Positions 8,290 through 45,878 of a stretch of DNA of 64,000 nucleotides are shown here, one piece after another. The stretch lies in contig NZ_JBQLZM010000135.1 of the NCBI RefSeq assembly GCF_052168275.1, forward strand, positions 2,509 through 66,508, written 5' to 3'. Numbering within the stretch: the first letter of the stretch is position 1; each line of letters opens with the position of its first letter. The stretch comes from Parasphingopyxis sp. Lineage in GTDB: Bacteria > Pseudomonadota > Alphaproteobacteria > Sphingomonadales > Sphingomonadaceae. The notes under the pieces are model-generated. The model saw only the letters and a list, made by a program, of their open reading frames with translations, searched no databases and had not been told where the DNA came from. Position numbers and translations under genes: made by a program.

Positions 8290-10194
8290 ATGGGCGATTC
8301 GAAAACTGCTCACCCTGTCTCCGGTCCGCCGACGCGCGACCAGGCGGTCATCAAGCTCGCGCTCGGTGCGATCGGCATCGTGTTCGGCGATATCGGAACG
8401 AGTCCGCTTTATGCGTTTCGCGAGGCGTTTACCGGCCATCACCCGCTCGCGCTCGATGCGCTGCATCTGTACGGCGTATTGAGCCTGATCTTCTGGGCCA
8501 TGATGCTCGTCGTCACGATCAAATATGTGGCGATCATCATGCGCGCGGACAATCGCGGGGAGGGGGGAAGCCTCGCGCTGCTGGCGCTGATGGGCGGCCG
8601 CAACTCCGGCAAGAAATGGAGCGCCGGGATCGTCATGCTCGGCGTGCTCGCCACCGCGCTGTTCTTCGGCGACTCGATGATCACCCCGGCGGTATCGGTG
8701 CTCGGCGCCGTCGAAGGGCTTGCCGTGGTCAATCCGTCGCTGAGCGGCTGGATCATACCGATCGCTGTCTTCATCCTTATCTTCCTGTTCCTTATCCAGC
8801 GGTCGGGAACCGCGCGGGTCGGCGCGTTTTTCGGGCCGATCATGCTGCTCTACTTCCTGACGATTTCGGTTCTCGGCATTCTCAGCATTGCGCAAAACCC
8901 CGAAATCCTCTGGGCCTTCAGCCCGCACTACGCGGTGCAATTCTTCATGATGGAACCGCTCAAGGCGTTTCTGGCGCTCGGCGCCGTCGTGCTCGCCGTG
9001 ACCGGCGCCGAAGCGCTCTATGCGGACATGGGCCATTTCGGCCGCAAGCCGATCGGCGTCTCCTGGCTCGTCTTCGTCCTTCCGGCGCTGATGCTCAACT
9101 ATATGGGGCAGGGCGCGCTGGCCCTGCGCGAGGGCGAGGCGATCATGGCCAACCCATTCTTCATGCTGGCGCCGGGCTGGTTCCAGCTGCCATTGCTGAT
9201 CATCGCCACGCTAGCGGCGATCATCGCCTGCCAGGCGGTGATTTCGGGCGCCTTCTCGGTGACGCAGCAGGCCATCCAGCTCGGCTTCATGCCGCGCCTC
9301 AGGATCAACCACACCAATGCCAAGACGATCGGCCAGATCTACATCCCGGTCGTCAACTGGGCGCTGATGATCATGGTCGTGCTGCTCGTGCTGACGTTCG
9401 GCAACGTATCGAACCTGACCGCCGCCTATGGCATCGCCGTGACCGGGGCGATGCTGATGGACACCTGTCTGCTCAGCGTCCTGCTCTTCAGCTTCTGGAA
9501 ATGGAACAAGCTCTGGGCCGGGTTGCTCGTCGGGCTGTTCTTCGTCGTCGACCTGCTGTTCTTCGCAGCCAATCTCACCAAGCTGACCGATGGCGGATGG
9601 GTGCCGCTGGCGATCAGCGGCTTCGCATTCATCCTGCTGACGAGCTGGGCCAAGGGGCGCTCGCTGCTCATCGCCCAGATGCGCGAAACCGCCATGCCGG
9701 TTCAGGTCTTCGTCAAATCCGCGGCAGGCGAAGCCACCCGCGTTCCCGGCACCGCCGTCTTCATGACGACCTCGCCCGAAGGCGTGCCCCATGCGCTGCT
9801 CCACAACCTCAAGCATAACAAGGTCCTGCACGAGCGGATCGTGCTTCTGACCGTCTCGATTCTCGACCGGCCGCACGTCGCCGAACAGGATCGCGTCAAA
9901 TCGGAGGATCTGGGTGCCGGCTTCTACCGGATCATCCTGCGCTACGGCTTCATGCAGGACACTAATGTGCCCAAGGCGCTCGAGAAGGTCACGACCTGCG
10001 GACCGCCGTTCCGCATGATCGAGACCAGTTTCTTCCTCGCCCGGCAGACGCTGCTGAGCTCGGAAAACCCGGGCATGGCCCCGTGGCGCGAGAAGCTGTT
10101 CGCCTGGATGCTGCGCAACGCGGAGACGGCGATGCAATTCTTCCGCCTGCCGCCGAACCGGGTGGTCGAACTCGGCAGCCAGGTCGAGATCTGA
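8290..10194 (+). CDS. kup: Potassium uptake transporter Kup
   Basis: [70 protein letters not shown]. Confidence 0.97.
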
Positions 10195-33780: not shown

Positions 33781-33886
33781 CGTCATTGCGAGGAGGCCGG
33801 AACTGGTTTCGGGGCGACGCGGCAATCCAGAGCGGTTGGGCAAGCGTTTCCAGGCTCCGGATTGCTTCGCTTCGCTCGCAATGACG
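33781..33886. repeat. CGTCATTGCGAG...CTCGCAATGACG palindromic element, copy 1
   Basis: 12-bp terminal inverted repeats plus inner GCAATCCAGAG/CTCCGGATTGC arms; near-identical inverted copy at 36189-36293. Confidence 0.88.
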
Positions 33887-34781: not shown

Positions 34782-36161
34782 ATGGATCCGTTGATCGTCT
34801 CGCTGATCGTCATGGCCGCGGTCGTTATCGGAGCGGCGCTGGGCTGGCTGGCGAGCGCCCGCGCGGCGGCGCCGCTGCGCGAGGAAAATGCACGGCTGCG
34901 CGGCGAGGGCGAAGCGGTCGCGAAAGACCTGCGCACCGCGCTCGACGGCGTGCGGGACGAGCGCGACGCCGCGCAGCGCGAACTGGCGGGACTCAAGGCC
35001 TCGGCCGAGGAACGCGACCGCGCGTTCGAAACCAGGCTCACAGAGCTGCGCGAGGCCAAGGAGGCGCTGACCGCGCAGTTCAGCGAAGTCGGCGCAAAGA
35101 TGCTCGGAGAAGCGCAGAAACAGTTTCTCGAACGCGCCGATGCGCGCTTCAACCAGGCCGGCGAAAAGAATGAGGAGCGGCTTAAACAGTTGCTGAGCCC
35201 GGTCGGCGAGCGGCTGAAAGCCTATGAGGAACAGGTCGGCAAGATCGAGAGGGAACGGACCGAAGCCTATGGCGACCTGAAGGGTTTGATGGACCAGATG
35301 CGCGCGGGCCAGGAAAACGTCCGCAGCGAAACGGAGAAGCTCGTCAATTCGCTGCGCAACGCCCCCAAAGCGCGCGGGCGCTGGGGCGAGCAGCAGCTGC
35401 GCAACGTACTCGAAACGGCCGGGCTCGCCGAACATACGGATTTCTCCACCGAGGTCAGCGTCGACAGCGCCGACGGGCGGATGCGCCCCGATGCCATCAT
35501 TCGCGTCCCGGGCGGGCGGGCGCTGGTGATCGACGCCAAGGTCTCGCTCAACGACTATCAGGACGCGTTCAACGCCGACGAGGAGGAGGCCCGCGAAATC
35601 GCGCTGGCGCGGCATTGCGTGTCGATGAAGACCCATATCGAGGGGCTGTCGCGCAAGGCCTATTGGAGCCAGTTCGACGAGGCGCCCGACTATGTGATCA
35701 TGTTCGTGCCGGGCGAGCATTTCCTGACCGCGGCGCTCGAGCACGAGCCCTCGCTCTGGGACCATGCGTTCGACAAGAAGGTGCTGCTCGCCACGCCGAC
35801 CAACCTGATCGCCATCGCGCGGACCGTCGCGGCGGTCTGGCGGCAGGAGGGGCTCGCGCAGGAAGCCAAGCAGATCGGCCAGCTCGGCAAGGAAATGTAC
35901 GACCGGCTCGCGGTGGCCGCCGGCCATATGCGGACGGTCGGCAGCGGCCTCACCACGGCGGTCAACAATTACAACAGGTTCGTCGGCAGTTTCGAGCGCA
36001 ACGTGCTCTCCACCGGCCGCCGTTTCGCCGAACTCAATATCGAGACGGGCAAGAACGAGATTGGCGAACTGCAGCCGGTCGAGGCGATTGCGCGAGAACC
36101 CAATGTGGCCGCGCTGCCATCTTCCGACAATGACGAGGATACGCCGGACGCCGCGGAATAG
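34782..36161 (+). CDS. rmuC: DNA recombination protein RmuC
   Basis: N-terminal TM plus coiled coil, RGRWGEQQLRNVLE, RPDAII..PGGR.LVIDAK, DYVIMFVPGE, VLLATPTNLIA. Confidence 0.95.
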   Translation: MDPLIVSLIVMAAVVIGAALGWLASARAAAPLREENARLRGEGEAVAKDLRTALDGVRDERDAAQRELAGLKASAEERDRAFETRLTELREAKEALTAQFSEVGAKMLGEAQKQFLERADARFNQAGEKNEERLKQLLSPVGERLKAYEEQVGKIERERTEAYGDLKGLMDQMRAGQENVRSETEKLVNSLRNAPKARGRWGEQQLRNVLETAGLAEHTDFSTEVSVDSADGRMRPDAIIRVPGGRALVIDAKVSLNDYQDAFNADEEEAREIALARHCVSMKTHIEGLSRKAYWSQFDEAPDYVIMFVPGEHFLTAALEHEPSLWDHAFDKKVLLATPTNLIAIARTVAAVWRQEGLAQEAKQIGQLGKEMYDRLAVAAGHMRTVGSGLTTAVNNYNRFVGSFERNVLSTGRRFAELNIETGKNEIGELQPVEAIAREPNVAALPSSDNDEDTPDAAE

Positions 36162-36188
36162 CGGATACGATGATGCGGGTTACTGGGC

Positions 36189-36293
36189 CGTCATTGCGAG
36201 CGCAGCGAAGCAATCCAGAGCCGCGGGCGGCACGTGTGCGGCTCTGGATAGCCGCGTCGGCCTGAAACAGGTTCCGGCCTCCTCGCAATGACG
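36189..36293. repeat. CGTCATTGCGAG...CTCGCAATGACG palindromic element, copy 2 (inverted relative to copy 1)
   Basis: Same termini and arms as the reverse complement of 33781-33886; only the central loop differs. Confidence 0.88.
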
Positions 36294-36328
36294 GAGGCGC
36301 AAATTGCCACATCCGGTCTTTACTGCCC

Positions 36329-36739
36329 TCAAACGTCCCCGCCGCAGCCCTCGACCGGCGGGCTGCCGCGTTCGGTGATCGTGACGATAGCGGGGTAGGG
36401 GGCGCCGCTCATCGCGTCCGCGCAGGGCCGGTCGAGTATCTCGACGGTGATCGAATCATTCTCGTACCGCCGGCCGCCGTCGAACGGCTCGACCTCGGGC
36501 GTGCGCGCCGTCACCCGGCGTTCGCCATAATCGGCTTCGTAGACGATCACGTCGTCATAGATGCGCAGGAACCAGCCCGGTTCCTGGCCGACGCCGCGGA
36601 ATATCGGCTCCGGTTCGGCCGCGGCGGCGGGCTCTTCCGTGTCGCCGCCCGGCGATTCGCCGGCGTCGGGCTGTTCCTCGCAGGCGGCGAGCGTCAGCAA
36701 GGCGGCGGCGGACAGCCCGGCCAGGATGCGCCGCGCCAT
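36329..36739 (-). CDS. Lipoprotein (COG3650-like)
   Basis: Lipobox LLTLAAC, FRGVGQEPGW.LRI, C.DAMSG..YP..V and terminal GCG; TGATG-coupled to upstream ORF. Confidence 0.7.
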   Translation of the reverse strand: MARRILAGLSAAALLTLAACEEQPDAGESPGGDTEEPAAAAEPEPIFRGVGQEPGWFLRIYDDVIVYEADYGERRVTARTPEVEPFDGGRRYENDSITVEILDRPCADAMSGAPYPAIVTITERGSPPVEGCGGDV

Positions 36740-36834
36740 CAATACACCGTGTCTTCGTACACGGGTTCGCCGCCCGCATAGGTGGTCGCGCAGGCCGCGA
36801 GGGTCAGCAGCAGCGCCAGTCCGAAAAAGCGCAT
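36739..36834 (-). CDS. 31-aa micro-lipoprotein (MRFFGLALLLTLAAC-ATTYAGGEPVYEDTVY)
   Basis: AGGAAGG SD 5 nt before ATG, type II signal peptide with lipobox, TGATG overlaps at both ends; not listed as its own ORF in the track. Confidence 0.6.
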   Translation of the reverse strand: MRFFGLALLLTLAACATTYAGGEPVYEDTVY

Positions 36835-38219
36835 CAGCCTTCCTTTCTCCGTCGTTCCAGATCGAGCCTGATACCATTTTCCGAACGCAAGGTCAGCCGC
36901 GCAATCGGTTTGGGCACATGGCCCGCGACCGGCGATACCGTCCAGTCGCGCATGATCGTCGCCAGTACGATCACCGCCTCCTGCAGCGCGAAGGCCGCGC
37001 CGAGGCAGACGCGCGGGCCTTTCGAGAAGGGCAGATAGGCCTTCTGCTCGGACGCCCGGGTTTCCGCCCGGCCGAACCGGTCGGGATCGAAGACGTCCGG
37101 ATCGTCCCAATGCTCGGTATGCCGGTGCTCGAGCAGCGGGGAGACGAACAGGATCGCGCCGGGCACGATGCGCTTGCCGCGCATCTCCTCCTCCTCGGTC
37201 GCGTCGCGCGGGATGAAGGCGACCGGCGGATAGAGGCGCAAGGTCTCGCGGAACACGTCGCGGGTGAACGGCAGGCGGCGCATCTTCTCGAATTCCAGCG
37301 GGCCGTCGGCGAACGCCGCATCGGCCTCCGCCTGCAACCGCGCCTGCACATCCGGGCATTGCGCGATCAGGTAGAGCGCCCAGGCGAGCGCCGAGGCAGA
37401 TGTTTCGTGCCCGGCGAGGAACATGATGCCGATCTGGTCGACCAGTTCGCGCTCGTCGAACCGCTTGCCGGTTTCCGGATCCTCGGCGCGGATGAAGCTG
37501 GCCAGCATGTCGCGGTCGGGCACCTCCGCGCCCTGCGCGATCGCGGCGAGCCGCTCGCGGACCGGCCGGTGGAGCAGTTCGCGGATCGTCGCCGCCGAAC
37601 GCCGGGCCCGCACCCTGCCGAGCGACAGCAATTGCGGCACGCCGGCCAGCGTCCATACGCCGTGCTGCCAGGCGAGATGCTGGAAGCGCTCGAAATTCTC
37701 GAAGATGGTTTCGGCCTCTTCGCGGGTGAAGGGCCGGGAATAGATGGTGCGGAAGATGACGTCGGCCGTCACATGCGTCATCTCGAGATCGATCTGCGTA
37801 TCCGGCCCCGCCGCACCGGCTGCGAACCGCTCGGCCATCGCGTCGACAGCCGCGCGCATCAGCGGGAAGATCGCCTTGATCCGCGTGGCCTCGAAGGCCG
37901 GGTCCATCATCCGGCGCTGCTGTTTCCAGAGATCGCCGTTCGACACGAAGATGCTCTCGCCGAGCAGCAGTTCGAGCATCGTCGCCATCAGGTCCGACTT
38001 GGGATAGCGGTCGACGTCGCCGAGCAGGATCTGCTGGACGAGATCGGGCTGGTTGACGAAATACATGGTTCGGCGCGGCAGCCGCACCTCGCCGAGTTTC
38101 ATCGAATAGCTGTTCGCGTAGAGCGGCGCGGTCGAGGAATGGAAGCTCTTCACGAAGCGCGCGAGCGGCCCGAGCTTTTTCGGGTTGCCGGCGGGTTTGG
38201 GGGGTACGAGGCCGGTCAT
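36834..38219 (-). CDS. Cytochrome P450
   Basis: I-helix MFLAGHETSA, K-helix ETLRLYPP, FDPDRF, heme motif PFSKGPRVCLG; ATG 38219 (ATGA overlap). Confidence 0.95.
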   Translation of the reverse strand: MTGLVPPKPAGNPKKLGPLARFVKSFHSSTAPLYANSYSMKLGEVRLPRRTMYFVNQPDLVQQILLGDVDRYPKSDLMATMLELLLGESIFVSNGDLWKQQRRMMDPAFEATRIKAIFPLMRAAVDAMAERFAAGAAGPDTQIDLEMTHVTADVIFRTIYSRPFTREEAETIFENFERFQHLAWQHGVWTLAGVPQLLSLGRVRARRSAATIRELLHRPVRERLAAIAQGAEVPDRDMLASFIRAEDPETGKRFDERELVDQIGIMFLAGHETSASALAWALYLIAQCPDVQARLQAEADAAFADGPLEFEKMRRLPFTRDVFRETLRLYPPVAFIPRDATEEEEMRGKRIVPGAILFVSPLLEHRHTEHWDDPDVFDPDRFGRAETRASEQKAYLPFSKGPRVCLGAAFALQEAVIVLATIMRDWTVSPVAGHVPKPIARLTLRSENGIRLDLERRRKEG

Positions 38220-39400
38220 CGCACCGCTTTCATGCGCCCGCGCCGCAGCCGTGTGAAGTCCCGCACCGAGGGGCGATGGGCGAAGCGGCCGGCGAGCGTC
38301 TGCGGCCCGGCGGTGATCGCGAAATAGTCGTAATCGGCGGGGCGGGCGGCGGCCATGATGTACTGGAAATGGAGCCGCATCCAGTTGCGCGATTGCTTGT
38401 CGAACTCGGCCTCGGGCATGATCTCGTGGAATTTGGCGTTGAGCAGCTTGGGATTCTTCCGGTCCGCATTGCGATCGCCGATCGCGGTATAGGGGTCGAC
38501 CAGCGCGAAACAGGCGCCGTCGGGCGGCGCGGAAATGTCGAGCCAGTCGACGGCACCGCTTTCGGCGACCGCCGCGATCTCGTCGCGCATCGCCTGCGCG
38601 TCGGGAAGCCAGGCGAGCCACATGATGGTCTGCCCCAGCGTCAGCAGCGACAGGGCCGGCGCGTCTTCGGGCGTGTCGTCGAGCGCGCGCGCGACGACGG
38701 CGATCGCCAGCGCCGCGCCATAGCTGTGGCCGACAACGAGGATCTCGTCGACGCCGCCTTCCTTCAGGCGCGCGCGGAGAAGATCGCCGAAATCGTCGCG
38801 GCGCCGGTCGAGCGAGCGGGTGCGGCTCTGTTCCTCGCGCTCGTGAAAGCTCAGGATGCGCCCGACCCAGGTCAGGTTGAACTTCTGTTCGAGCCGATAG
38901 GCGAGCCAGAGCAGCCCGAAACCGACGGCGAGGCCGCCGATCAGGCCGGGCAGGCCGATCGCGAAATAGCCGGCCGCGCTCAGCCCGATGCCGACGAGGA
39001 TCAGCAGCAGGATCGCGATGGCGGGCATCGTCGCGGTGACGCCGGCGGGCCAGCTCCACCGGAAGGTTCTGGCGAATACGCCCGAGCGCAGCGCCCGCCA
39101 GCTCGCGGTCAGCGTCACCCAGGCCAGCCTCGCCGGCTGCTTGACCCAGAACTGGCGGACGATATCGTCCCATTCGCAATAGAGATATTCGGTTTCGGTG
39201 GTTCCCGCGGCGTCCGAATGGCGGACGTCCCAGCGGACCAGATGGTCGGCGATCCGCGCGCGCTTGCCGACTTCGATGTCGTAGCCGGATACCGCCGCCT
39301 GTTTGGCCGCCTCGGCCCGGTAGAGCTGGTGATAATAGCGCACCCCGCGCGGATCGAACCCGCTCAGATAGAGGACGAGGCGGCGGCGGACCGTGCTCAT
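38216..39400 (-). CDS. Membrane-anchored alpha/beta-hydrolase-fold protein (P450 partner)
   Basis: LYLSGFDPRG N-terminus, two central TM helices, VVGHSYGA nucleophile elbow, candidate Asp (PPDG) and His (LHFQY). Confidence 0.65.
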   Translation of the reverse strand: MSTVRRRLVLYLSGFDPRGVRYYHQLYRAEAAKQAAVSGYDIEVGKRARIADHLVRWDVRHSDAAGTTETEYLYCEWDDIVRQFWVKQPARLAWVTLTASWRALRSGVFARTFRWSWPAGVTATMPAIAILLLILVGIGLSAAGYFAIGLPGLIGGLAVGFGLLWLAYRLEQKFNLTWVGRILSFHEREEQSRTRSLDRRRDDFGDLLRARLKEGGVDEILVVGHSYGAALAIAVVARALDDTPEDAPALSLLTLGQTIMWLAWLPDAQAMRDEIAAVAESGAVDWLDISAPPDGACFALVDPYTAIGDRNADRKNPKLLNAKFHEIMPEAEFDKQSRNWMRLHFQYIMAAARPADYDYFAITAGPQTLAGRFAHRPSVRDFTRLRRGRMKAVR

Positions 39401-40197
39401 CGCCGGAACTGGTTCAGCACTTCATAGGCCATGACCGCCGTCGCCACCGCCGCGTTCAGGCTGTCGGCCTTGCCGCGCATCGGCATTTTGACGAGCAGGT
39501 CGCAGGCGGCCGCATAGTCGGCCGGCAGTCCGGCCGATTCATTGCCGGTCAGGATGAAGGTCGGCGGCACGTAATCGGGCGCCTGATAGTCGAGGTCGGC
39601 ATCGAGGCTGGTGCCGACCAGCATCCCGTCCCCGTCGCGCAGCCAGGCGACGAATTCCGCCCAGCGCGCGGTCGCGACCGCCTGGGTGAACAGCGCGCCC
39701 ATCGACGCGCGCACGGCCTCGACCGAAAAGGGGTCGGCGCAATCGTCGACGAGGATCAGCCCGCCCGCGCCGACCGCGTCGCCGGTCCGCAGCATCGTGC
39801 CGAGATTGCCCGGATCGCGCAGCGCCTGCGCGACCAGCCAGATATCGGAGGTCGAACGGTCGATAGCGGCCAGCCCGGTATCCCATTCGCGATAGATGCC
39901 GACGACCGCCTGGGGATTGTCCTTGCCCGACAGCTTGGAGAGGATCGCGCGCGTCGTCCGGACCGCCTCGCCGCCGGCCCGCTCGGTCGCGGCGACGAGC
40001 GCCTGTGCGCGCGGATGATCGGCGGACTCCCCGGCGAAGAAAATCTGCTCGGGCAGCCGCCCGCTCTCCACCGCTTCGGTCAGGATGCGCAGCCCCTCGG
40101 CGAGGAACAGGCCCTCGGCGCGCCGGTTCTTCTTGTCGCGCAGCGAGCGGGCGCGCTTGATCAGCGGATTGGAAAAGGCCGTAATGTCGCGGGGCAG
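39397..40197 (-). CDS. TrmH/SpoU family RNA 2'-O-methyltransferase (probable CTG start)
   Basis: ITAFSNPLIKRARSL, FLAEG, LRDPGNLGTMLRT, GNESAGL, IPM-like MPMRGKADSLNAAVA SPOUT knot; conserved N-terminus extends 42 codons upstream of the track start. Confidence 0.88.
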   Translation of the reverse strand: MPRDITAFSNPLIKRARSLRDKKNRRAEGLFLAEGLRILTEAVESGRLPEQIFFAGESADHPRAQALVAATERAGGEAVRTTRAILSKLSGKDNPQAVVGIYREWDTGLAAIDRSTSDIWLVAQALRDPGNLGTMLRTGDAVGAGGLILVDDCADPFSVEAVRASMGALFTQAVATARWAEFVAWLRDGDGMLVGTSLDADLDYQAPDYVPPTFILTGNESAGLPADYAAACDLLVKMPMRGKADSLNAAVATAVMAYEVLNQFRR

Positions 40198-40200
40198 GAC

Positions 40201-40473
40201 TCAGTCCTCCCCGAATTTGGACTCGACCAGCGCCGCCAGTTTTTCGACCGCTTCCTCGGCGCCATCGCCTTCGGCGCGGATCGTAATCGTGTCGCCCTTC
40301 GCGGCGCCGAGCATCATCAGATCGAGGATCGAGGATCCGGCAACGCTCTGTCCGTCCCGCGACACCTCGACCTCGGTGTCGAGTTCGCTGACCAGGGTCA
40401 CGAACTTGCTGCTCGCCCGGGCATGGAGCCCGCGCTGATTGGCAATGGTCACCGTGCGCTCGACCGCGCTCAA
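40201..40473 (-). CDS. ptsH: HPr/NPr family phosphocarrier
   Basis: NQRGLHARAS (His15 equivalent), GSSILDLMML (Ser46 region); TTG start overlapping EIIA stop. Confidence 0.93.
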   Translation of the reverse strand: MSAVERTVTIANQRGLHARASSKFVTLVSELDTEVEVSRDGQSVAGSSILDLMMLGAAKGDTITIRAEGDGAEEAVEKLAALVESKFGED

Positions 40474-40874
40474 GCCGCTTGTCCCAATATCTCGGACGCG
40501 ACGGAGATATATTTCTTGCCGGCATCACGGGCCGCGGCGACCGCATCGGTGACGCTCATCGACTGGCGCGCGCTGGCGAGCCGGATCAGCATCGGCAGGT
40601 TCATGCCGGCGATCACTTCCACCTGTTCGGGTCGCATCAGCGAAATGGAGAGGTTGGAGGGGGTGCCGCCGAACAGGTCGGTCAGCACGATCACGCCCTT
40701 GCCGTTGTCGACCTTCTTCACCGCTTCGGCGATCTCGGCGCGGCGTTCCTCCATGTCGTCGTCGGGACCGATGCAGATCGCCTCGATCAGCTCCTGCGCG
40801 CCCACGACATGCTCCATCGCCACCACGAACTCGCACGCAAGATTGCCATGCGTCACCAGAACCAGCCCGATCAT
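40470..40874 (-). CDS. PTS EIIA mannose-type component
   Basis: MIGLVLVTHG, VLTDLFGGTPSN, IAGMNLPMLI. Confidence 0.93.
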   Translation of the reverse strand: MIGLVLVTHGNLACEFVVAMEHVVGAQELIEAICIGPDDDMEERRAEIAEAVKKVDNGKGVIVLTDLFGGTPSNLSISLMRPEQVEVIAGMNLPMLIRLASARQSMSVTDAVAAARDAGKKYISVASEILGQAA

Positions 40875-41819
40875 TCACTCACCTGCATTGCCGTTTTCGC
40901 CCGCGGCCACCCGCTCGACGGAATCGAGCGACGGGAAGGCCAGATCGCGGTGCGCGACCGTGGGGGAAAATCCCGCCTTACGCAACCGTTCGGCGACCCG
41001 TTCGGCCACATGTACCGATCTGTGCCGCCCGCCCGTGCAGCCGAAGGCGAGGGTGACATAGGCTTTTCCCTCCGCCTGGTATCGCGGCAGCAGGAGCAGC
41101 GCGAGATCCTCGATCCGGCCCACGGCTTCCTCATAGGCGACATCCTCGGCGATATAGGCGCCGACCGGCGCATCGAGACCGGTCAGCGGCCGCAGCTCCT
41201 TGTCCCAATGCGGGTTGCGCAGGAACCGCATGTCGAACACCAGATCCGCGTTGCGCAATATGCCGCGGGCGAAACCGAACGATGCGACCGTCACGACGAG
41301 TTCCTCCGCGCTTTTCGAGCTGAAGCGGGCGCGCAGCTCCTTCTGGAGATCGTTGGCAGCGCTGTCGGTGGTGTCGATGACATGCGCCGCCCAGCGCCGG
41401 AGCGGCATCATGATTTCGCGTTCGCGGCCGATGCCGTGGGCGGCCGGGCGATCGAGCGCCATGGGGTGGCGCCGCCGGGTTTCGGAAAAGCGCCGCTCGA
41501 GTTCGCGGCCGCCGCAATCGAGAAACACGGTCTCGATCTCGAGCGCATGGGATTTGTTCAGCGCCTTGATCCGCTGGACGATGGCATTGGCGTTGAAGCC
41601 GCGGGTCCGGCTGTCGATGCCGATCGCGATCGAACGCTCGGCCTTGGCGGGGTCGAGCGGCACGCCGGTCTCGAACAATTTGTCGAACAGGCTCAACGGC
41701 AGATTGTCGACCGTTTCCCAGCCCATGTCCTCGAAGGTACGCAAGGCCGTGGACTTGCCGGCGCCGGACATGCCCGTGACGAGCAATATGCGCCGATTGG
41801 ACGGGTGTGGGTCAGTCAT
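40875..41819 (-). CDS. rapZ: RNase adapter RapZ/YvcJ
   Basis: TGMSGAGKST, VDNLP, RRFSETRRRHP, SFGF..G, DMRFLRNPHW, GCTGGRHRSV. Confidence 0.95.
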   Translation of the reverse strand: MTDPHPSNRRILLVTGMSGAGKSTALRTFEDMGWETVDNLPLSLFDKLFETGVPLDPAKAERSIAIGIDSRTRGFNANAIVQRIKALNKSHALEIETVFLDCGGRELERRFSETRRRHPMALDRPAAHGIGREREIMMPLRRWAAHVIDTTDSAANDLQKELRARFSSKSAEELVVTVASFGFARGILRNADLVFDMRFLRNPHWDKELRPLTGLDAPVGAYIAEDVAYEEAVGRIEDLALLLLPRYQAEGKAYVTLAFGCTGGRHRSVHVAERVAERLRKAGFSPTVAHRDLAFPSLDSVERVAAGENGNAGE

Positions 41820-43369
41820 GCGTCGGCCATCGGCAAAGTGACGGTGAAACGCGCGCCGCTTGCCGAATCGTCGCGGTTTCCAGCCTCGATACTTCCATCA
41901 TGCCCGTCGACAATAGCCTTGGCGATGGCGAGGCCCAAGCCCGAATGCGTGCCGAAATCCTCTTCGGACGGCCGCATGCTGTGGAAACGGCGGAATATCT
42001 GCTCGCGCTGTTCTTCCGGGATGCCCGGCCCCTCGTCCTCGACGGAGATATAGACGCGCTCGCCGTCGCCGGTCGCCGCGATCCGGACCGTGCCGTTCGC
42101 CGGCGAGAAGGACACGGCATTGTCGAGCAGGTTCTCCAGTGCCCGGGCCAGTTGCGACGCATCGCCCATCACGACCGCGCTCCCGGTCCGGGGACGGCCG
42201 AAGGCGATGCGGACCTGACCGTTGAGCCCGCGTTCGTCCCGGAACTGGACGATCGAGCCGATAAGGTCGCCGATATCGACCCGCTCGAAATTCGCGCGGG
42301 AGAGCTCGGCGTCGATCCGCGACGCGGTCGATATCTCGGTGATCAGGCGGTCGAGCCGCCGGACATCGTCCTGCACGACGTCGAGCAGCCGGGCCTGGAG
42401 CTCGGGATCCTCGACCTTGCGCAGCGTGTCGACCGCGGAACTGAGCGAGGCGAGCGGATTTTTGAGCTCGTGCGCGACATCAGCGGCGAAGGCCTCGGTC
42501 GCGTCGATCCGCTGCCGCAACGCCTGGCTCATGTCGGACAGCGTGCGCGCGAGCAGCCCGATCTCGTCGCGCCGCGACGGCAGGCGCGGCAGGACGACCT
42601 CGCGCGCGCGCCCCAGGCGCACCCGCCTCGCGGCCAGCGACAGCCGCCTCAGCGGCCGGACGATGGTCCGCGCGAGAAACAGCGACAGCAGGATCGAAAC
42701 GAGGGCGGCGACGAATATGATGATGCCGAGCCGCAGCCTTTCGTTGCGCACATCGCCGCGGATATCGCGCGCATTGGCGGTCACCAGGGCGATCTGGCCG
42801 GGCTCGCGGGAGAGCGGAATCGCCACCGACACCATCGGCGTGCGGTCCGGCGCCAGCGCGAGCTGCGTCGTCACCGCGCCGGTTTCGGGCACGTCGGCCG
42901 CGAATTCCCAGGCCGAGAGCCGGTCTAGCTCGGGTTCCTCGAAACGGGGCAGGGGGTCGGCGTTGACCACGGTCTCGATTCCCTGATCCATCCACCGCGC
43001 GACGCTGCGGCGCCACGGTTCGGTCGCCGGATCCCGGTTCACATAGGTCGGCTCGGCGACTTCCCAGCTATCGAGGATCGCCGCGCCGTCGGCATTGTAG
43101 ATCCGGATCCGGTGGCCGCTCCGCCGCCCGAGCGCCGCCAGCAGCTCGGCCCGCTCGCCGGGCTCGGCGCGATCGATCACATTGGCGATCAGTTCGGCCT
43201 GGGTCTCGGTCTGGCGCGTGCGCTCGTCGAGCAGCTTGACGCGGTAATTGTCGAGCCAGAAGAAGCTGCCCGCGAGGAGCGCGACCGCGAAGATGTTGAC
43301 GGCCAGGATGCGGCTCGTCAGCGACCATCGCGCCGACCATCTCAGGTCAAGGTCGTCGCCGGTTCCCAC
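41816..43369 (-). CDS. chvG: Sensor histidine kinase ChvG-like
   Basis: Two TM helices, HAMP, ADVAHELKNPL, NLLDNAVSFSP, DEGPG, SGLGLAI; downstream of chvI. Confidence 0.88.
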   Translation of the reverse strand: MGTGDDLDLRWSARWSLTSRILAVNIFAVALLAGSFFWLDNYRVKLLDERTRQTETQAELIANVIDRAEPGERAELLAALGRRSGHRIRIYNADGAAILDSWEVAEPTYVNRDPATEPWRRSVARWMDQGIETVVNADPLPRFEEPELDRLSAWEFAADVPETGAVTTQLALAPDRTPMVSVAIPLSREPGQIALVTANARDIRGDVRNERLRLGIIIFVAALVSILLSLFLARTIVRPLRRLSLAARRVRLGRAREVVLPRLPSRRDEIGLLARTLSDMSQALRQRIDATEAFAADVAHELKNPLASLSSAVDTLRKVEDPELQARLLDVVQDDVRRLDRLITEISTASRIDAELSRANFERVDIGDLIGSIVQFRDERGLNGQVRIAFGRPRTGSAVVMGDASQLARALENLLDNAVSFSPANGTVRIAATGDGERVYISVEDEGPGIPEEQREQIFRRFHSMRPSEEDFGTHSGLGLAIAKAIVDGHDGSIEAGNRDDSASGARFTVTLPMADA

Positions 43370-44083
43370 CTATTCCTCGGCGAAACGATAGCCGACTCCG
43401 TACAGCGTTTCGATCGCGTCGAACTCGTCGTCGACCTGCCGGAACTTGCGGCGGAGCCGCTTGATATGGCTGTCGATCGTGCGATCGTCGACATAGACGT
43501 CGTCGGTATAGGCGGCGTCCATCAGCTGGTCGCGCGATTTGACGATGCCCGGCCGCTGGGCGAGCGATTCGAGGATCATGAATTCGGTGACAGTCAGCGT
43601 CACATTCTGGCCGGCCCAGGTCACCCGGTGACGGGCGGGATCCATTTCCAGCCGGCCGCGGACGATCCGCTCGGGCAGTTCCTCGGTCGCGCTCTCGTCC
43701 CCGCCGCTTTGCGACGAGAGTTCGCTGCGCCGCAATATCGCGCGGATCCGGGCGATCAGCAGCCGCTGCGAAAAGGGTTTGGAGATATAGTCGTCGGCGC
43801 CCATCGCCAGGCCCAGCGCCTCGTCCAGCTCGTCGTCCTTCGAGGTCAGGAAGATCACCGGGATCGCGCTCTTTTCGCGCAACCGGCGGAGCAGTTCCAT
43901 GCCGTCCATCTGCGGCATCTTGATATCGAGCACGGCCAGGTCGGGCGGATTTTCGATCAGCGCCTTGAGCGCCGTCTCGCCGTCGGAATAGATCCGCGTC
44001 GCGAAGCCTTCGGACTGCAGCGCAATCGAAACCGAGGTCAAAATATTCTTGTCGTCGTCGACAAGCGCGATCGTGGCGGTCAT
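43370..44083 (-). CDS. chvI: OmpR-family response regulator ChvI-like
   Basis: [52 protein letters not shown]; divergent from pckA. Confidence 0.92.
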
Positions 44084-44276
44084 CCGGTTACCATATCCTA
44101 GGAGTTCCGCGCCTGACTAGCGGTCTCGGCACGGCGCGGCAATGGGCGCTTGTCACCGAATAATCGAGTCTCGCGCGTTGATTTTTCCGCCGCTAACTGC
44201 TTAGGCCTGAAGGCAAGTGACGATGGCGCTTTTCAAGGCAGCCGCGTTCTTCCCGGATTTTCTTAGGAGATTTGAA

Positions 44277-45878
44277 TTGTCCGCTCGTACCCCCGCTTTC
44301 GATTTGGCCAAACAGGGAATCGATACCGGTACCGCCGATCTGCGCTGGAACCTGACCACCGCGCCGCTGATCGAGACGTCGGTCGAACGCGGCGAAGGCA
44401 GGCTCGCCAAACATGGTCCGCTGGTCGTCGAAACCGGCAAGCACACCGGCCGCTCGGCCAAGGACAAGTTCATCGTGCGCGACGGCGAGACCGAGGACAC
44501 GGTCTGGTGGGGCAAGGTCAACGTCCCGATGTCGCCCGAGCATTTCGCCGCGCTCAAGGAGGATTTCCTGGCCGAAGTCGCGAAGAAGGACACGCTGTTC
44601 GTCCAGGATCTTTACGGCGGCTCGCAGCCCGACCATCGCGTCCGGGTCCGGGTCATCAACGAGCTCGCCTGGCACAACCTGTTCATCCGCACCCTGTTGT
44701 GCCGGCCGGAAGAGGGCGAGCTGGCGGGTTTCGAACCCGAATATACGATCATCGACCTCCCCAGCTTCCGCGCCGATCCCGAACGCCACGGCACGCGGTC
44801 CGAAACCGTCGTCGCGGTCAATCTCTCGGAAAAGCTGATCCTGATCGGCGGCACCAAATATGCCGGCGAGATGAAGAAGTCGGTGTTCGGCATCCTGAAC
44901 TACAAGCTCCCCGCCGACGGCATCATGCCGATGCACTGTTCGGCGAATATCGGCCCCGAGGGCGATACCGCGATCTTCTTCGGCCTGTCGGGCACCGGCA
45001 AGACCACGCTGTCGGCCGATGCGGGCCGCACGCTGATCGGCGACGACGAGCATGGCTGGTCCGACACCGCGGTCTTCAATTTCGAAGGCGGCTGCTATGC
45101 CAAGATGATCCGGCTGTCCGAAGAGGCCGAGCCCGAAATCTACGCGACGACACGGCGGTTCGGCACGGTGCTCGAGAATGTCGTCATGGATCCGGCGACG
45201 CGGGAGCTGGATTTCGACGATTCGAGCCTCGCCGAGAACAGCCGCGGCGCCTATCCGATCGACTTCATTCCGAACAGTTCGGAGGAAAATCTCGGCCCGG
45301 TGCCCAAAAACGTGATCATGCTGACCGCAGACGCGTTCGGCGTGCTGCCGCCGATCGCGCGGCTGACGCCGGACCAGGCCATGTACCACTTTCTCTCGGG
45401 CTACACGGCCAAGGTCGCCGGCACCGAAATCGGCGTGACCGAACCCGAAGCCACCTTCTCGACCTGTTTCGGCGCGCCGTTCATGCCGCGCCATCCCAGC
45501 GTCTACGGCAATCTTCTCAAGGAGCGGATCGCCATGGGCGGCGTCAAATGCTGGCTCGTCAATACCGGCTGGACCGGCGGCAAGTACGGCGTCGGCAACC
45601 GGATGCCGATCAAGGCGACGCGCGCGCTGCTGAATGCCGCGCTCGACGGCAGCCTCAACGACGCCGAATTCCGCGTCGATCCCAATTTCGGCTTCGACGT
45701 TCCGGTGTCCGTGCCGGGCGTCGACGACGCGATCCTCGATCCGCGCGGTACCTGGGACGATCCCGAGGCCTATGACGAGATGGCCGCCAAGCTGGTCGGG
45801 CTGTTCATCGACAATTTCGCCCAGTTCGAAGAGCATGTCGACCAAGGGGTGCGCGAGGCGGCGCCGACGCCGGCCTGA
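44277..45878 (+). CDS. pckA: PEP carboxykinase (ATP)
   Basis: [51 protein letters not shown]; TTG 44277 after AGGAGA. Confidence 0.96.

Follow-up and report, generated by a model that had tools for sequence, protein, structure and literature searches.

A probable Cj1412c/Cj1411c-type hydrolase-P450 cassette behind chvIG in Parasphingopyxis and its association with KpsS/KpsC capsule genes

The window analysed here is a 64,000-nucleotide stretch of genomic DNA from Parasphingopyxis sp., and our subject is a two-gene cassette on its minus strand that encodes a membrane-anchored α/β-hydrolase-fold protein (hereafter the hydrolase; a hypothetical protein from P. algicola shares 94% identity with it) and a cytochrome P450. 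Listing of the open reading frames (ORFs) together with Pfam and NCBIfam scans placed the cassette in a run of 10 consecutive minus-strand genes extending from chvI (44083) to a lipoprotein gene (36329): the two-component genes chvI and chvG, rapZ, the genes for EIIA and HPr of the regulatory phosphotransferase system (PTS), a TrmH-type methyltransferase gene (trmH), the cassette, and two lipoprotein genes (Table 1). All 9 junctions, read directly in the sequence, have either a gap of 0-3 nt or an overlap of 1-4 nt; from chvI to the last lipoprotein gene they are TAG abutting GTG, ATGA, TGA abutting ATG, TTGA, a 3-nt gap, ATGA, ATGA, TGATG, and TGATG. The ORF and domain scans and the reading of the junctions confirm the original prediction, made from the sequence alone, of a ten-gene run in which neighbours overlap or lie within 3 nt of each other. 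The cassette is poorly understood but had already been noticed; what is new here is that it is tied to genomes encoding the capsule proteins KpsS and KpsC and that, in Parasphingopyxis, it was placed between trmH and rmuC.

The features by which we recognized a cassette hydrolase, namely an N-terminal Y-x-x-G-x-D-P motif, a transmembrane (TM) hairpin, G-H-S-x-G, and the histidine of H-F-Q-Y, are all present in the window protein. GHSYG lies at residues 224-228, PPDG at 292-295, and LHFQY at 343-347, and in an alignment with 25 homologues (38-80% identity) Y11, G14, D16, G224, H225, S226, G228, D288, D294, H344, F345, and Y347 are invariant. The AlphaFold model (predicted local distance difference test (pLDDT) 90, predicted template modelling score (pTM) 0.91) shows an α/β-hydrolase sheet and a helical hairpin formed by the 53-residue hydrophobic stretch 116-168, which is flanked on both sides by Arg/Lys-rich segments; the hairpin is part of a set of long helices that separate the N-terminal strands from the nucleophile strand. 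In the model strand 219-226 leads into S226, strand 284-290 holds D288 and is followed by D294, and strand 318-321 precedes H344. The modelled Ser-Asp-His order is the canonical one, after strands 5, 7, and 8, with Ser226, Asp288 or Asp294, and His344 as the candidate triad, in agreement with the triad that the original prediction had read from the GHSYG, PPDG, and LHFQY motifs; the hairpin agrees with its two TM helices. Because the catalytic residues are invariant and are also kept in a second Burkholderiales paralogue, and because the fold is confidently modelled, this conserved hydrolase is probably catalytic. The Arg and Lys residues on both flanks of the hairpin suggest, by the positive-inside rule, that its catalytic domain faces the cytoplasm.

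Pfam gave no family above cut-off for the hydrolase, with weak Lipase_3 and Abhydrolase_6 matches at the GHSYG elbow; no sequence relative was found in the PDB, and Foldseek against the PDB returned nothing below E 0.04. Relatives of the α/β-hydrolase fold surfaced only with an exhaustive structure aligner. Z values of 9.8-10.7 over 170-240 residues were obtained for M. tuberculosis TesA (the best match, Z 10.7), the glycosylphosphatidylinositol (GPI) inositol deacylase PGAP1/Bst1, Tle3, the DDHD phospholipase A1 domain, acyl-protein thioesterases, carboxylesterase/lysophospholipase-like enzymes, and PlaB, and several type II thioesterases scored 9.3-9.7. The lipid-acting hydrolases of this group have the core sheet and nucleophile elbow in common with the window protein, as well as the order Ser, Asp, His, but their identity to it is 6-13%, and the two-helix membrane hairpin is specific to the hydrolase family described here. 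In a library of 1.84 billion representatives that family makes up 1,739 clusters when grouped at 50% identity, all of about 370-430 aa.

The P450 bears the catalytic motifs AGHET (269), ETLR (325), PDRF (379), and FSKGPRVCLG (398), with Cys405 as the heme ligand; it is soluble and lacks a TM segment. Among solved structures it is closest to CYP97, CYP170A1, CYP46A1, CYP102, and CYP4B1, and the characterized members of this CYP4/97/102/46/170 neighbourhood oxidize lipophilic substrates. Mean column identity across 28 aligned orthologues is 58%, a high figure for P450s that points to a single conserved substrate. Identity is 37-38% to two Campylobacterales orthologues and 40-58% to the others, and the P450 is a candidate member of the CYP172 family, for which the rule asks at least 40% identity to CYP172A1 itself. 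As originally predicted, all catalytic motifs are present and no redox partner is nearby: none was found in the ten-gene run or among the recurrent neighbours of 80 related loci. The genome holds eight further P450-domain matches (contigs C13, C52, C51, C43, and C105), so redox partners are probably encoded elsewhere.

A pattern scan of one genome per GTDB species detected a hydrolase relative in at least 565 species genomes from three phyla, spanning Alpha-, Beta-, and Gammaproteobacteria, Verrucomicrobiota, and Campylobacterota; hosts come mainly from Burkholderiales, Rhodobacterales, Campylobacterales, and Verrucomicrobiota. When the window P450 was used in tblastn, an orthologue (40-58% identity outside the genus) directly adjoined the hydrolase gene in 77 of the 80 best loci, the remaining three being cut off by a contig end at the hydrolase; the original proposal requires such co-occurrence elsewhere. 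Two layouts recur. One is the hydrolase followed by the P450 with a gap below 100 nt; the other, mostly in Burkholderiales, consists of a paralogous hydrolase, the P450, a ~115-aa single-TM protein, and the hydrolase, with S226, D288, D294, and H344 kept in both hydrolase paralogues. Most alphaproteobacterial copies are isolated hydrolase-P450 pairs. As judged from this conservation, the hydrolase and the P450 are a true functional pair, and the cassette is widespread and inherited both vertically and horizontally. Within Sphingomonadales the hydrolase was found in 16 of the 17 Parasphingopyxis genomes and in none of the 23 other genera searched, that is, in one genus of 24.

Two variants of the family deserve separate description. 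A recurrent Burkholderiales cluster (L013 from Ideonella sp., L028, L031, L048-L051, L056, and L060) encodes, in this order, a GMC oxidoreductase, DUF8198, an AMP-dependent ligase, a metallo-beta-lactamase fold protein, the hydrolase paralogue, the P450, the ~115-aa TM protein, the hydrolase, and a glycosyltransferase of GT1 type with resemblance to CalG1, sterol glucosyltransferase, and OleD; the set has the look of a pathway in which a lipid is activated, hydroxylated, and glycosylated. The other variant is a distant hydrolase subfamily with 26-29% identity and the N-terminal motif IYIQGYDPRG, present in large alphaproteobacterial genomes (L137:8363-9661, L138:8090-9442, L139:8114-9445, and L140 around 8712-9809).

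The top AlphaFold DB cluster for the hydrolase is automatically named 'Putative integral membrane protein Cj1412c' (TM-score 0.90, 38% identity). A profile search of 201 Campylobacterales genomes gave 12 strong hydrolase matches (1e-74 to 1e-81), and the hydrolase is followed by the P450 in all 8 of the loci inspected. Genomes of Campylobacter size show kpsS, the hydrolase, the P450, and a gene for ~117 aa in succession. At one Campylobacter locus the order is kpsC, cdtABC, kpsS, an unknown gene, hydrolase, P450, and a gene for a 117-aa protein; the cdtA-cdtB-cdtC genes there (L119:2819-5007) lie between kpsC and kpsS, a few kb upstream of the cassette. In C. jejuni, the P450 Cj1411c sits at the end of the kps region (PMC3784454). 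Given the cluster name, the gene order kpsS-hydrolase-P450, and this published placement, the window cassette is very probably of the Cj1412c/Cj1411c type, and the Campylobacter parallel that the original prediction had drawn is very probably correct. The epithet 'undescribed', which it had also given to the module, does not stand: Cj1411c has been studied, is 83% membrane-bound, and shifts its spin state with inner-membrane fractions, and its deletion lowers Alcian-blue-stained capsule and serum resistance (PMC3784454).

The likeness to the C. jejuni Cj1412c/Cj1411c/Cj1410c system (PMC3784454) covers the hydrolase family with its TM hairpin, motifs, and fold, a P450 orthologue (37-38% identical to the two aligned copies from Campylobacterales), the gene order, strand, and tight coupling, and a host genome that encodes both KpsS and KpsC. 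The two systems differ in position and in company. The C. jejuni cassette lies at the kps locus, whereas that of Parasphingopyxis lies apart, with KpsS and KpsC on other contigs; Cj1410c follows the P450 in C. jejuni, whereas Parasphingopyxis has two lipoproteins instead and carries the cassette behind chvIG-rapZ-EIIA-HPr-trmH. A ~115-aa single-TM protein occupies the Cj1410c position in 40 of 83 loci, and a search for such a protein in this genome gave no match at E <= 0.1.

The association with capsule genes was followed with PF05159 as the marker of the KpsS/KpsC family, in counts that include many related genomes. KpsS- or KpsC-like genes lie within 9 kb in 20 of the 83 loci, often with Poly_export and GT4 genes alongside, and in Sulfuricurvum, another Campylobacterales metagenome-assembled genome (MAG), and a gammaproteobacterial MAG the cassette stands between kpsC-like and kpsS-like genes. 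Location in a kps cluster, found for about a quarter of loci, is frequent and not defining. At the level of whole genomes, PF05159 was detected in 48 of 50 carriers whose locus lacks kps genes, the two without it being MAGs. It was present in all 17 Parasphingopyxis genomes and in 6 of the other 23 Sphingomonadales genera, all 23 of which lack the hydrolase; in 12/12 Campylobacterales hydrolase carriers and 9/189 non-carriers; and, in an even sample of Pseudomonadota, in 25 of the 33 genomes with a hydrolase-profile match against a background of 53 in 301. The eight matches lacking PF05159 were apparent exceptions to the rule, and the 4 inspected belong to the distant subfamily and have no neighbouring P450. 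Nesting of the cassette within KpsS/KpsC genomes recurs in at least 10 separate lineages and in two independent samples. P450-paired copies are almost confined to KpsS/KpsC genomes and often lie inside kps clusters.

The genome studied here has KpsS on contig C126 (single domain, 4.1e-81) and KpsC on contig C18 (double domain, 2.7e-82). KpsS is encoded beside kdsB, kdsA, and a KpsF-type isomerase gene (L135:9208-13246), and the two-domain KpsC on another contig (L136:3174-5273). The window cassette is not inside or beside a kps cluster; its neighbours are the chvIG and PTS genes upstream and rmuC downstream. [quoted passage not shown] KpsS and KpsC build a (lyso)phosphatidylglycerol-poly-Kdo anchor at the cytoplasmic face of the inner membrane (PMC11666461). 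This pathway provides the cassette with a functional context only, in that the cassette co-occurs with its genes, is often placed among them, and would work on the same side of the membrane, but it has no homology to the cassette and its gene set lies apart from it here. Since the anchor pathway also runs without the cassette in many bacteria, any role of the cassette would be one of accessory tailoring.

The position behind chvIG has its own history. Five sister genera of the same family show the order pckA<>chvI-chvG-hprK-rapZ-EIIA-HPr-trmH, with rmuC converging 0.4-1.3 kb past trmH in three of them, and both the hydrolase and the P450 are missing from all five; in more distant families, trmH is not at this position. 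The lack of the cassette between trmH and rmuC in the sister genera shows, by comparison of gene orders, that Parasphingopyxis inserted the hydrolase, the P450, and two lipoprotein genes there, at the 3' end of the conserved cluster, with no intergenic DNA left. A short hprK (142-149 aa, Hpr_kinase_C 1.6e-19) lies between chvG and rapZ in sister genera (L124:4343-4792, L123:9815-10249, and L126:9667-10095), and chvG of Parasphingopyxis overlaps rapZ directly (41816-41819); as judged from these comparisons of gene order, hprK has been lost from the cluster, and HPr and EIIA-Man have been kept. The ATGA overlaps of trmH with the hydrolase gene and of the hydrolase gene with the P450 gene are retained in genus members (L134, for example), and, in the loci compared, the linkage of chvIG to the cassette is genus-specific. 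In Brucella, bvrR and bvrS head a 16-gene operon, as shown by reverse-transcription PCR (PMC9491525). This operon and the alphaproteobacterial pckA<>chvI-chvG-hprK-PTS(Ntr) cluster (PMC9491525, PMC2937029) are similar to the Parasphingopyxis run in the divergent pckA upstream, the two-component genes in first place, the regulatory PTS genes that follow, and the long, closely spaced array on a single strand. Unlike the Brucella operon, the Parasphingopyxis run has no hprK and contains rapZ and the TrmH-type methyltransferase gene, and it ends with the hydrolase-P450 cassette and the lipoproteins, which are missing from Brucella.

Both lipoproteins contain the lipobox LTLAAC, conserved in the genus. 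The first is a micro-lipoprotein with a 16-residue mature peptide after the lipidated Cys, its gene sharing a one-base TGATG overlap with each neighbour; 6 of 7 genus loci retain both the reading frame and the peptide. The second, of 136 aa, is modelled as a disordered linker followed by a small all-beta barrel at 45-136 (AlphaFold pLDDT >90 over the barrel); its nearest ESM Atlas clusters are labelled 'COG3650 family protein/Lipoprotein' (0.94), Pfam gave no match, and structure searches returned only weak calycin-like matches with E > 0.07. Homologues of the 136-aa protein were found only within the genus, and neither lipoprotein was found beside the cassette in related loci outside it. Descent of the 136-aa protein from a resident predating the insertion was considered and rejected, the META-domain lipoprotein that follows trmH in one sister genus being unrelated. 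The lipoproteins, which the original prediction had counted as part of the module, are thus genus-specific additions that do not accompany the cassette elsewhere.

There is no intergenic DNA across the 7.7 kb of the run. A consensus scan for sigma-70 promoters, a method insensitive to alphaproteobacterial and extracytoplasmic function (ECF) promoters, found no sigma-70-like promoter on the minus strand inside it. The corresponding terminator scan of that strand found none in the run except a weak hairpin in the chvI 5' end, which we judged to be a chance occurrence, as 3 sites were found against 5.4 expected, fewer than in shuffled sequence. Rfam gave no family match in 35500-44700. The tight gene spacing and the lack of consensus promoter and terminator signals make co-transcription of the cassette with chvIG plausible. 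For the methyltransferase gene, no ATG, GTG, or TTG start was seen near the HPr stop; the start appears to be a CTG (40195-40197), 3 nt past that stop and preceded by GGAGG. Alignment with six genus relatives and three sister genera revealed the CTG in 7 Parasphingopyxis loci and ATG at the same position in the sister genera. The transcript may end at the REP-like palindrome that separates the last lipoprotein gene from rmuC. This palindrome has a second copy at 33782-33885, and in both copies the outer arms are GTCATTGCGAG/CTCGCAATGAC.

Table 1. Genes and other features of the chvI-to-lipoprotein run and its borders in the window
Feature	Position	Strand	Evidence and remarks
pckA, divergent, upstream of chvI	44217-45878	+	PEPCK_ATP 5.9e-219
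chvI, OmpR-type response regulator, first gene of the run	43370-44083	-	Pfam Response_reg and Trans_reg_C
chvG, sensor histidine kinase	41816-43369	-	Sensor_TM1, Stimulus_sens_1, HAMP, HisKA, HATPase_c; 0-nt gap to chvI
rapZ	40875-41819	-	NF003828, 5.2e-94; ATGA overlap with chvG stop
EIIA, mannose family (regulatory PTS)	40470-40874	-	PF03610 7.7e-32
HPr/NPr	40201-40473	-	PF00381 8.3e-28; TTG start overlapping EIIA stop (TTGA)
SpoU/TrmH-family RNA 2'-O-methyltransferase	39397-40197	-	SpoU_methylase 1.4e-30, MRM3-like_sub_bind 4.6e-19
Membrane-anchored α/β-hydrolase-fold protein, probable Cj1412c type	38216-39400	-	Below all Pfam cut-offs; homologue alignment and model
Cytochrome P450, probable Cj1411c type, candidate CYP172	36834-38219	-	PF00067 7.5e-72, 243 bits
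Micro-lipoprotein, 31 aa	36739-36834	-	Lipobox LAAC
Lipoprotein, 136 aa, COG3650 family	36329-36739	-	Lipobox LAAC; ESM Atlas nearest clusters
Nested palindromic REP-like element at the border of the lipoprotein gene and rmuC	36190-36292		Sequence read; possible transcript end
rmuC, convergent, downstream of the run	34782-36161	+	RmuC 2.9e-100

The interpretation that we favour, with a little better than an even chance in our estimate, is that the cassette is a Cj1412c/Cj1411c-type pair that tailors a lipid of the ATP-binding cassette (ABC)-transporter-type capsule pathway at the inner membrane and that has been inserted behind chvIG in Parasphingopyxis. The hydrolase would be held in the inner membrane by its helical hairpin with the catalytic domain toward the cytoplasm, and the substrate of the pair would be a membrane lipid on the cytoplasmic side, with the hydrolase carrying out ester cleavage or acyl transfer and the P450 oxygenating an acyl or other hydrophobic chain. 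The most likely target would be the lipid end, or a lipid precursor, of the capsule glycolipid, as suggested by the near-confinement of P450-paired copies to KpsS/KpsC genomes, the frequent location of the cassette in kps clusters, and the lowered capsule of C. jejuni on loss of the P450. In Parasphingopyxis the cassette would be read through from the chvI promoter, at a level following chvIG expression. A more specific scheme, which is speculative and which we would not expect to hold in full, is that the hydrolase takes an acyl chain off phosphatidylglycerol-(Kdo)n or passes it on, a step that could explain lyso-phosphatidylglycerol termini in hosts, that the P450 hydroxylates the remaining chain, that the GT1 enzyme glycosylates it in Burkholderiales, and that ChvG/ChvI couples the step to envelope stress in Parasphingopyxis.

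Several observations weigh against capsule-lipid tailoring under chvIG control. In this genome and at most alphaproteobacterial loci the cassette is far from kps genes, and KpsS/KpsC genomes without it are common: 9 of 21 in Campylobacterales, to which E. coli K-types can be added. Absence from so many KpsS/KpsC genomes implies an accessory rather than a core step. The co-occurrence statistics overstate the case, with related genomes being counted (Rhodobacterales alone contribute 17/17), and at the 4 inspected loci of the distant hydrolase subfamily there is no P450 within 9 kb and there are no KpsS/KpsC genes in the genome. The predicted complex of hydrolase and P450 scored 0.25 against a mark of 0.32, which speaks neither for nor against binding. 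On the regulatory side, promoters within coding sequence may escape the sigma-70 consensus scan, and no public RNA run was found to contain this DNA.

Other explanations differ in what the pair acts on. The original prediction took the cassette and lipoproteins for a lipid-remodelling module under stress control, acting possibly on sphingolipids or lipoprotein acyl chains, here those of a sphingomonad envelope, and the sphingomonad host, the coupling of the genes to two lipoprotein genes and to chvIG, and the resemblance of the hydrolase to lipid esterases all fit such a module. We nevertheless regard it as very improbable: the hydrolase is present in nearly every Parasphingopyxis genome and in none of the other Sphingomonadales genera searched, its hosts are chiefly Burkholderiales, Rhodobacterales, Campylobacterales, and Verrucomicrobiota, groups that for the most part are not, to our knowledge, recognized as makers of sphingolipids, and the lipoproteins are restricted to the genus and exported, whereas the hydrolase domain and the P450 are predicted to be cytoplasmic. 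Of the envelope lipid-remodelling idea, the conserved pair and a likely envelope role survive; the sphingolipid or lipoprotein-acyl target is not supported, since the cassette tracks KpsS/KpsC and was found in a single genus of the Sphingomonadales searched. The hydrolase might instead be a thioesterase or acyltransferase acting on acyl-acyl carrier protein (acyl-ACP) or acyl-CoA, feeding or releasing a P450 substrate in the manner of P450 BioI, with no membrane-lipid substrate involved. TesA as best structural match and the type II thioesterases close behind it point this way, but the Z values tie with those of PGAP1, Tle3, DDHD, and lysophospholipase-like enzymes, and both the conservation of the membrane hairpin and Cj1411c's association with the membrane (PMC3784454) favour a membrane substrate, so that we consider this reading improbable.

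A better case can be made for a free product of lipophilic nature, for instance a hydroxylated fatty acid or a glycolipid, which the cassette would make or modify and which would be no part of the capsule glycolipid, the overlap with KpsS/KpsC then reflecting shared lifestyle or genomic islands. The Ideonella-type loci, with their AMP-dependent ligase, metallo-beta-lactamase fold protein, GMC oxidoreductase, DUF8198, and GT1 enzyme, look like a self-contained pathway of activation, hydroxylation, and glycosylation, and the isolated pairs that predominate in alphaproteobacteria also agree with it. However, other Burkholderiales loci, which carry Poly_export, GT4, and KpsC as well, have this GT1 gene and the duplicated hydrolase nested between kpsS and the cassette; the nesting in KpsS/KpsC genomes recurs across lineages and in both samples; and the C. 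jejuni mutant loses capsule (PMC3784454). We therefore hold a free product to be rather unlikely. A separate doubt concerns regulation only: the position behind chvIG may have no regulatory meaning, the cassette being driven by a separate promoter within trmH or within coding sequence further upstream, and the spacing being the result of compaction after insertion. The cassette works without chvIG in every other lineage, and the promoter scan is of limited sensitivity; we take this to be a serious possibility, although we lean against it. The conserved ATGA overlaps in genus members, the absence of intergenic DNA from the run, and the precedent of the 16-gene bvrRS operon in Brucella (PMC9491525) argue for read-through.

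The most useful outcome of this analysis is the comparative tie of the cassette to KpsS/KpsC; its regulatory neighbourhood in Parasphingopyxis is unusual. The sole P450 of C. jejuni has been without an assigned substrate since its first study, and its membrane neighbour is not known to have been examined. The occurrence of the cassette in at least 565 species genomes of three phyla, the near-confinement of P450-paired copies to KpsS/KpsC genomes, and the presence of the cassette in harmless, fast-growing marine alphaproteobacteria together turn a single-species oddity into a testable question, that of the lipid chemistry accompanying ABC-transporter-type capsules. The tie to KpsS/KpsC makes the substrate of the Campylobacter P450 experimentally approachable in such harmless relatives. 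The Parasphingopyxis arrangement offers a possible regulatory handle through ChvG/ChvI and, if confirmed, would link envelope-stress sensing to the tailoring of the capsule anchor.

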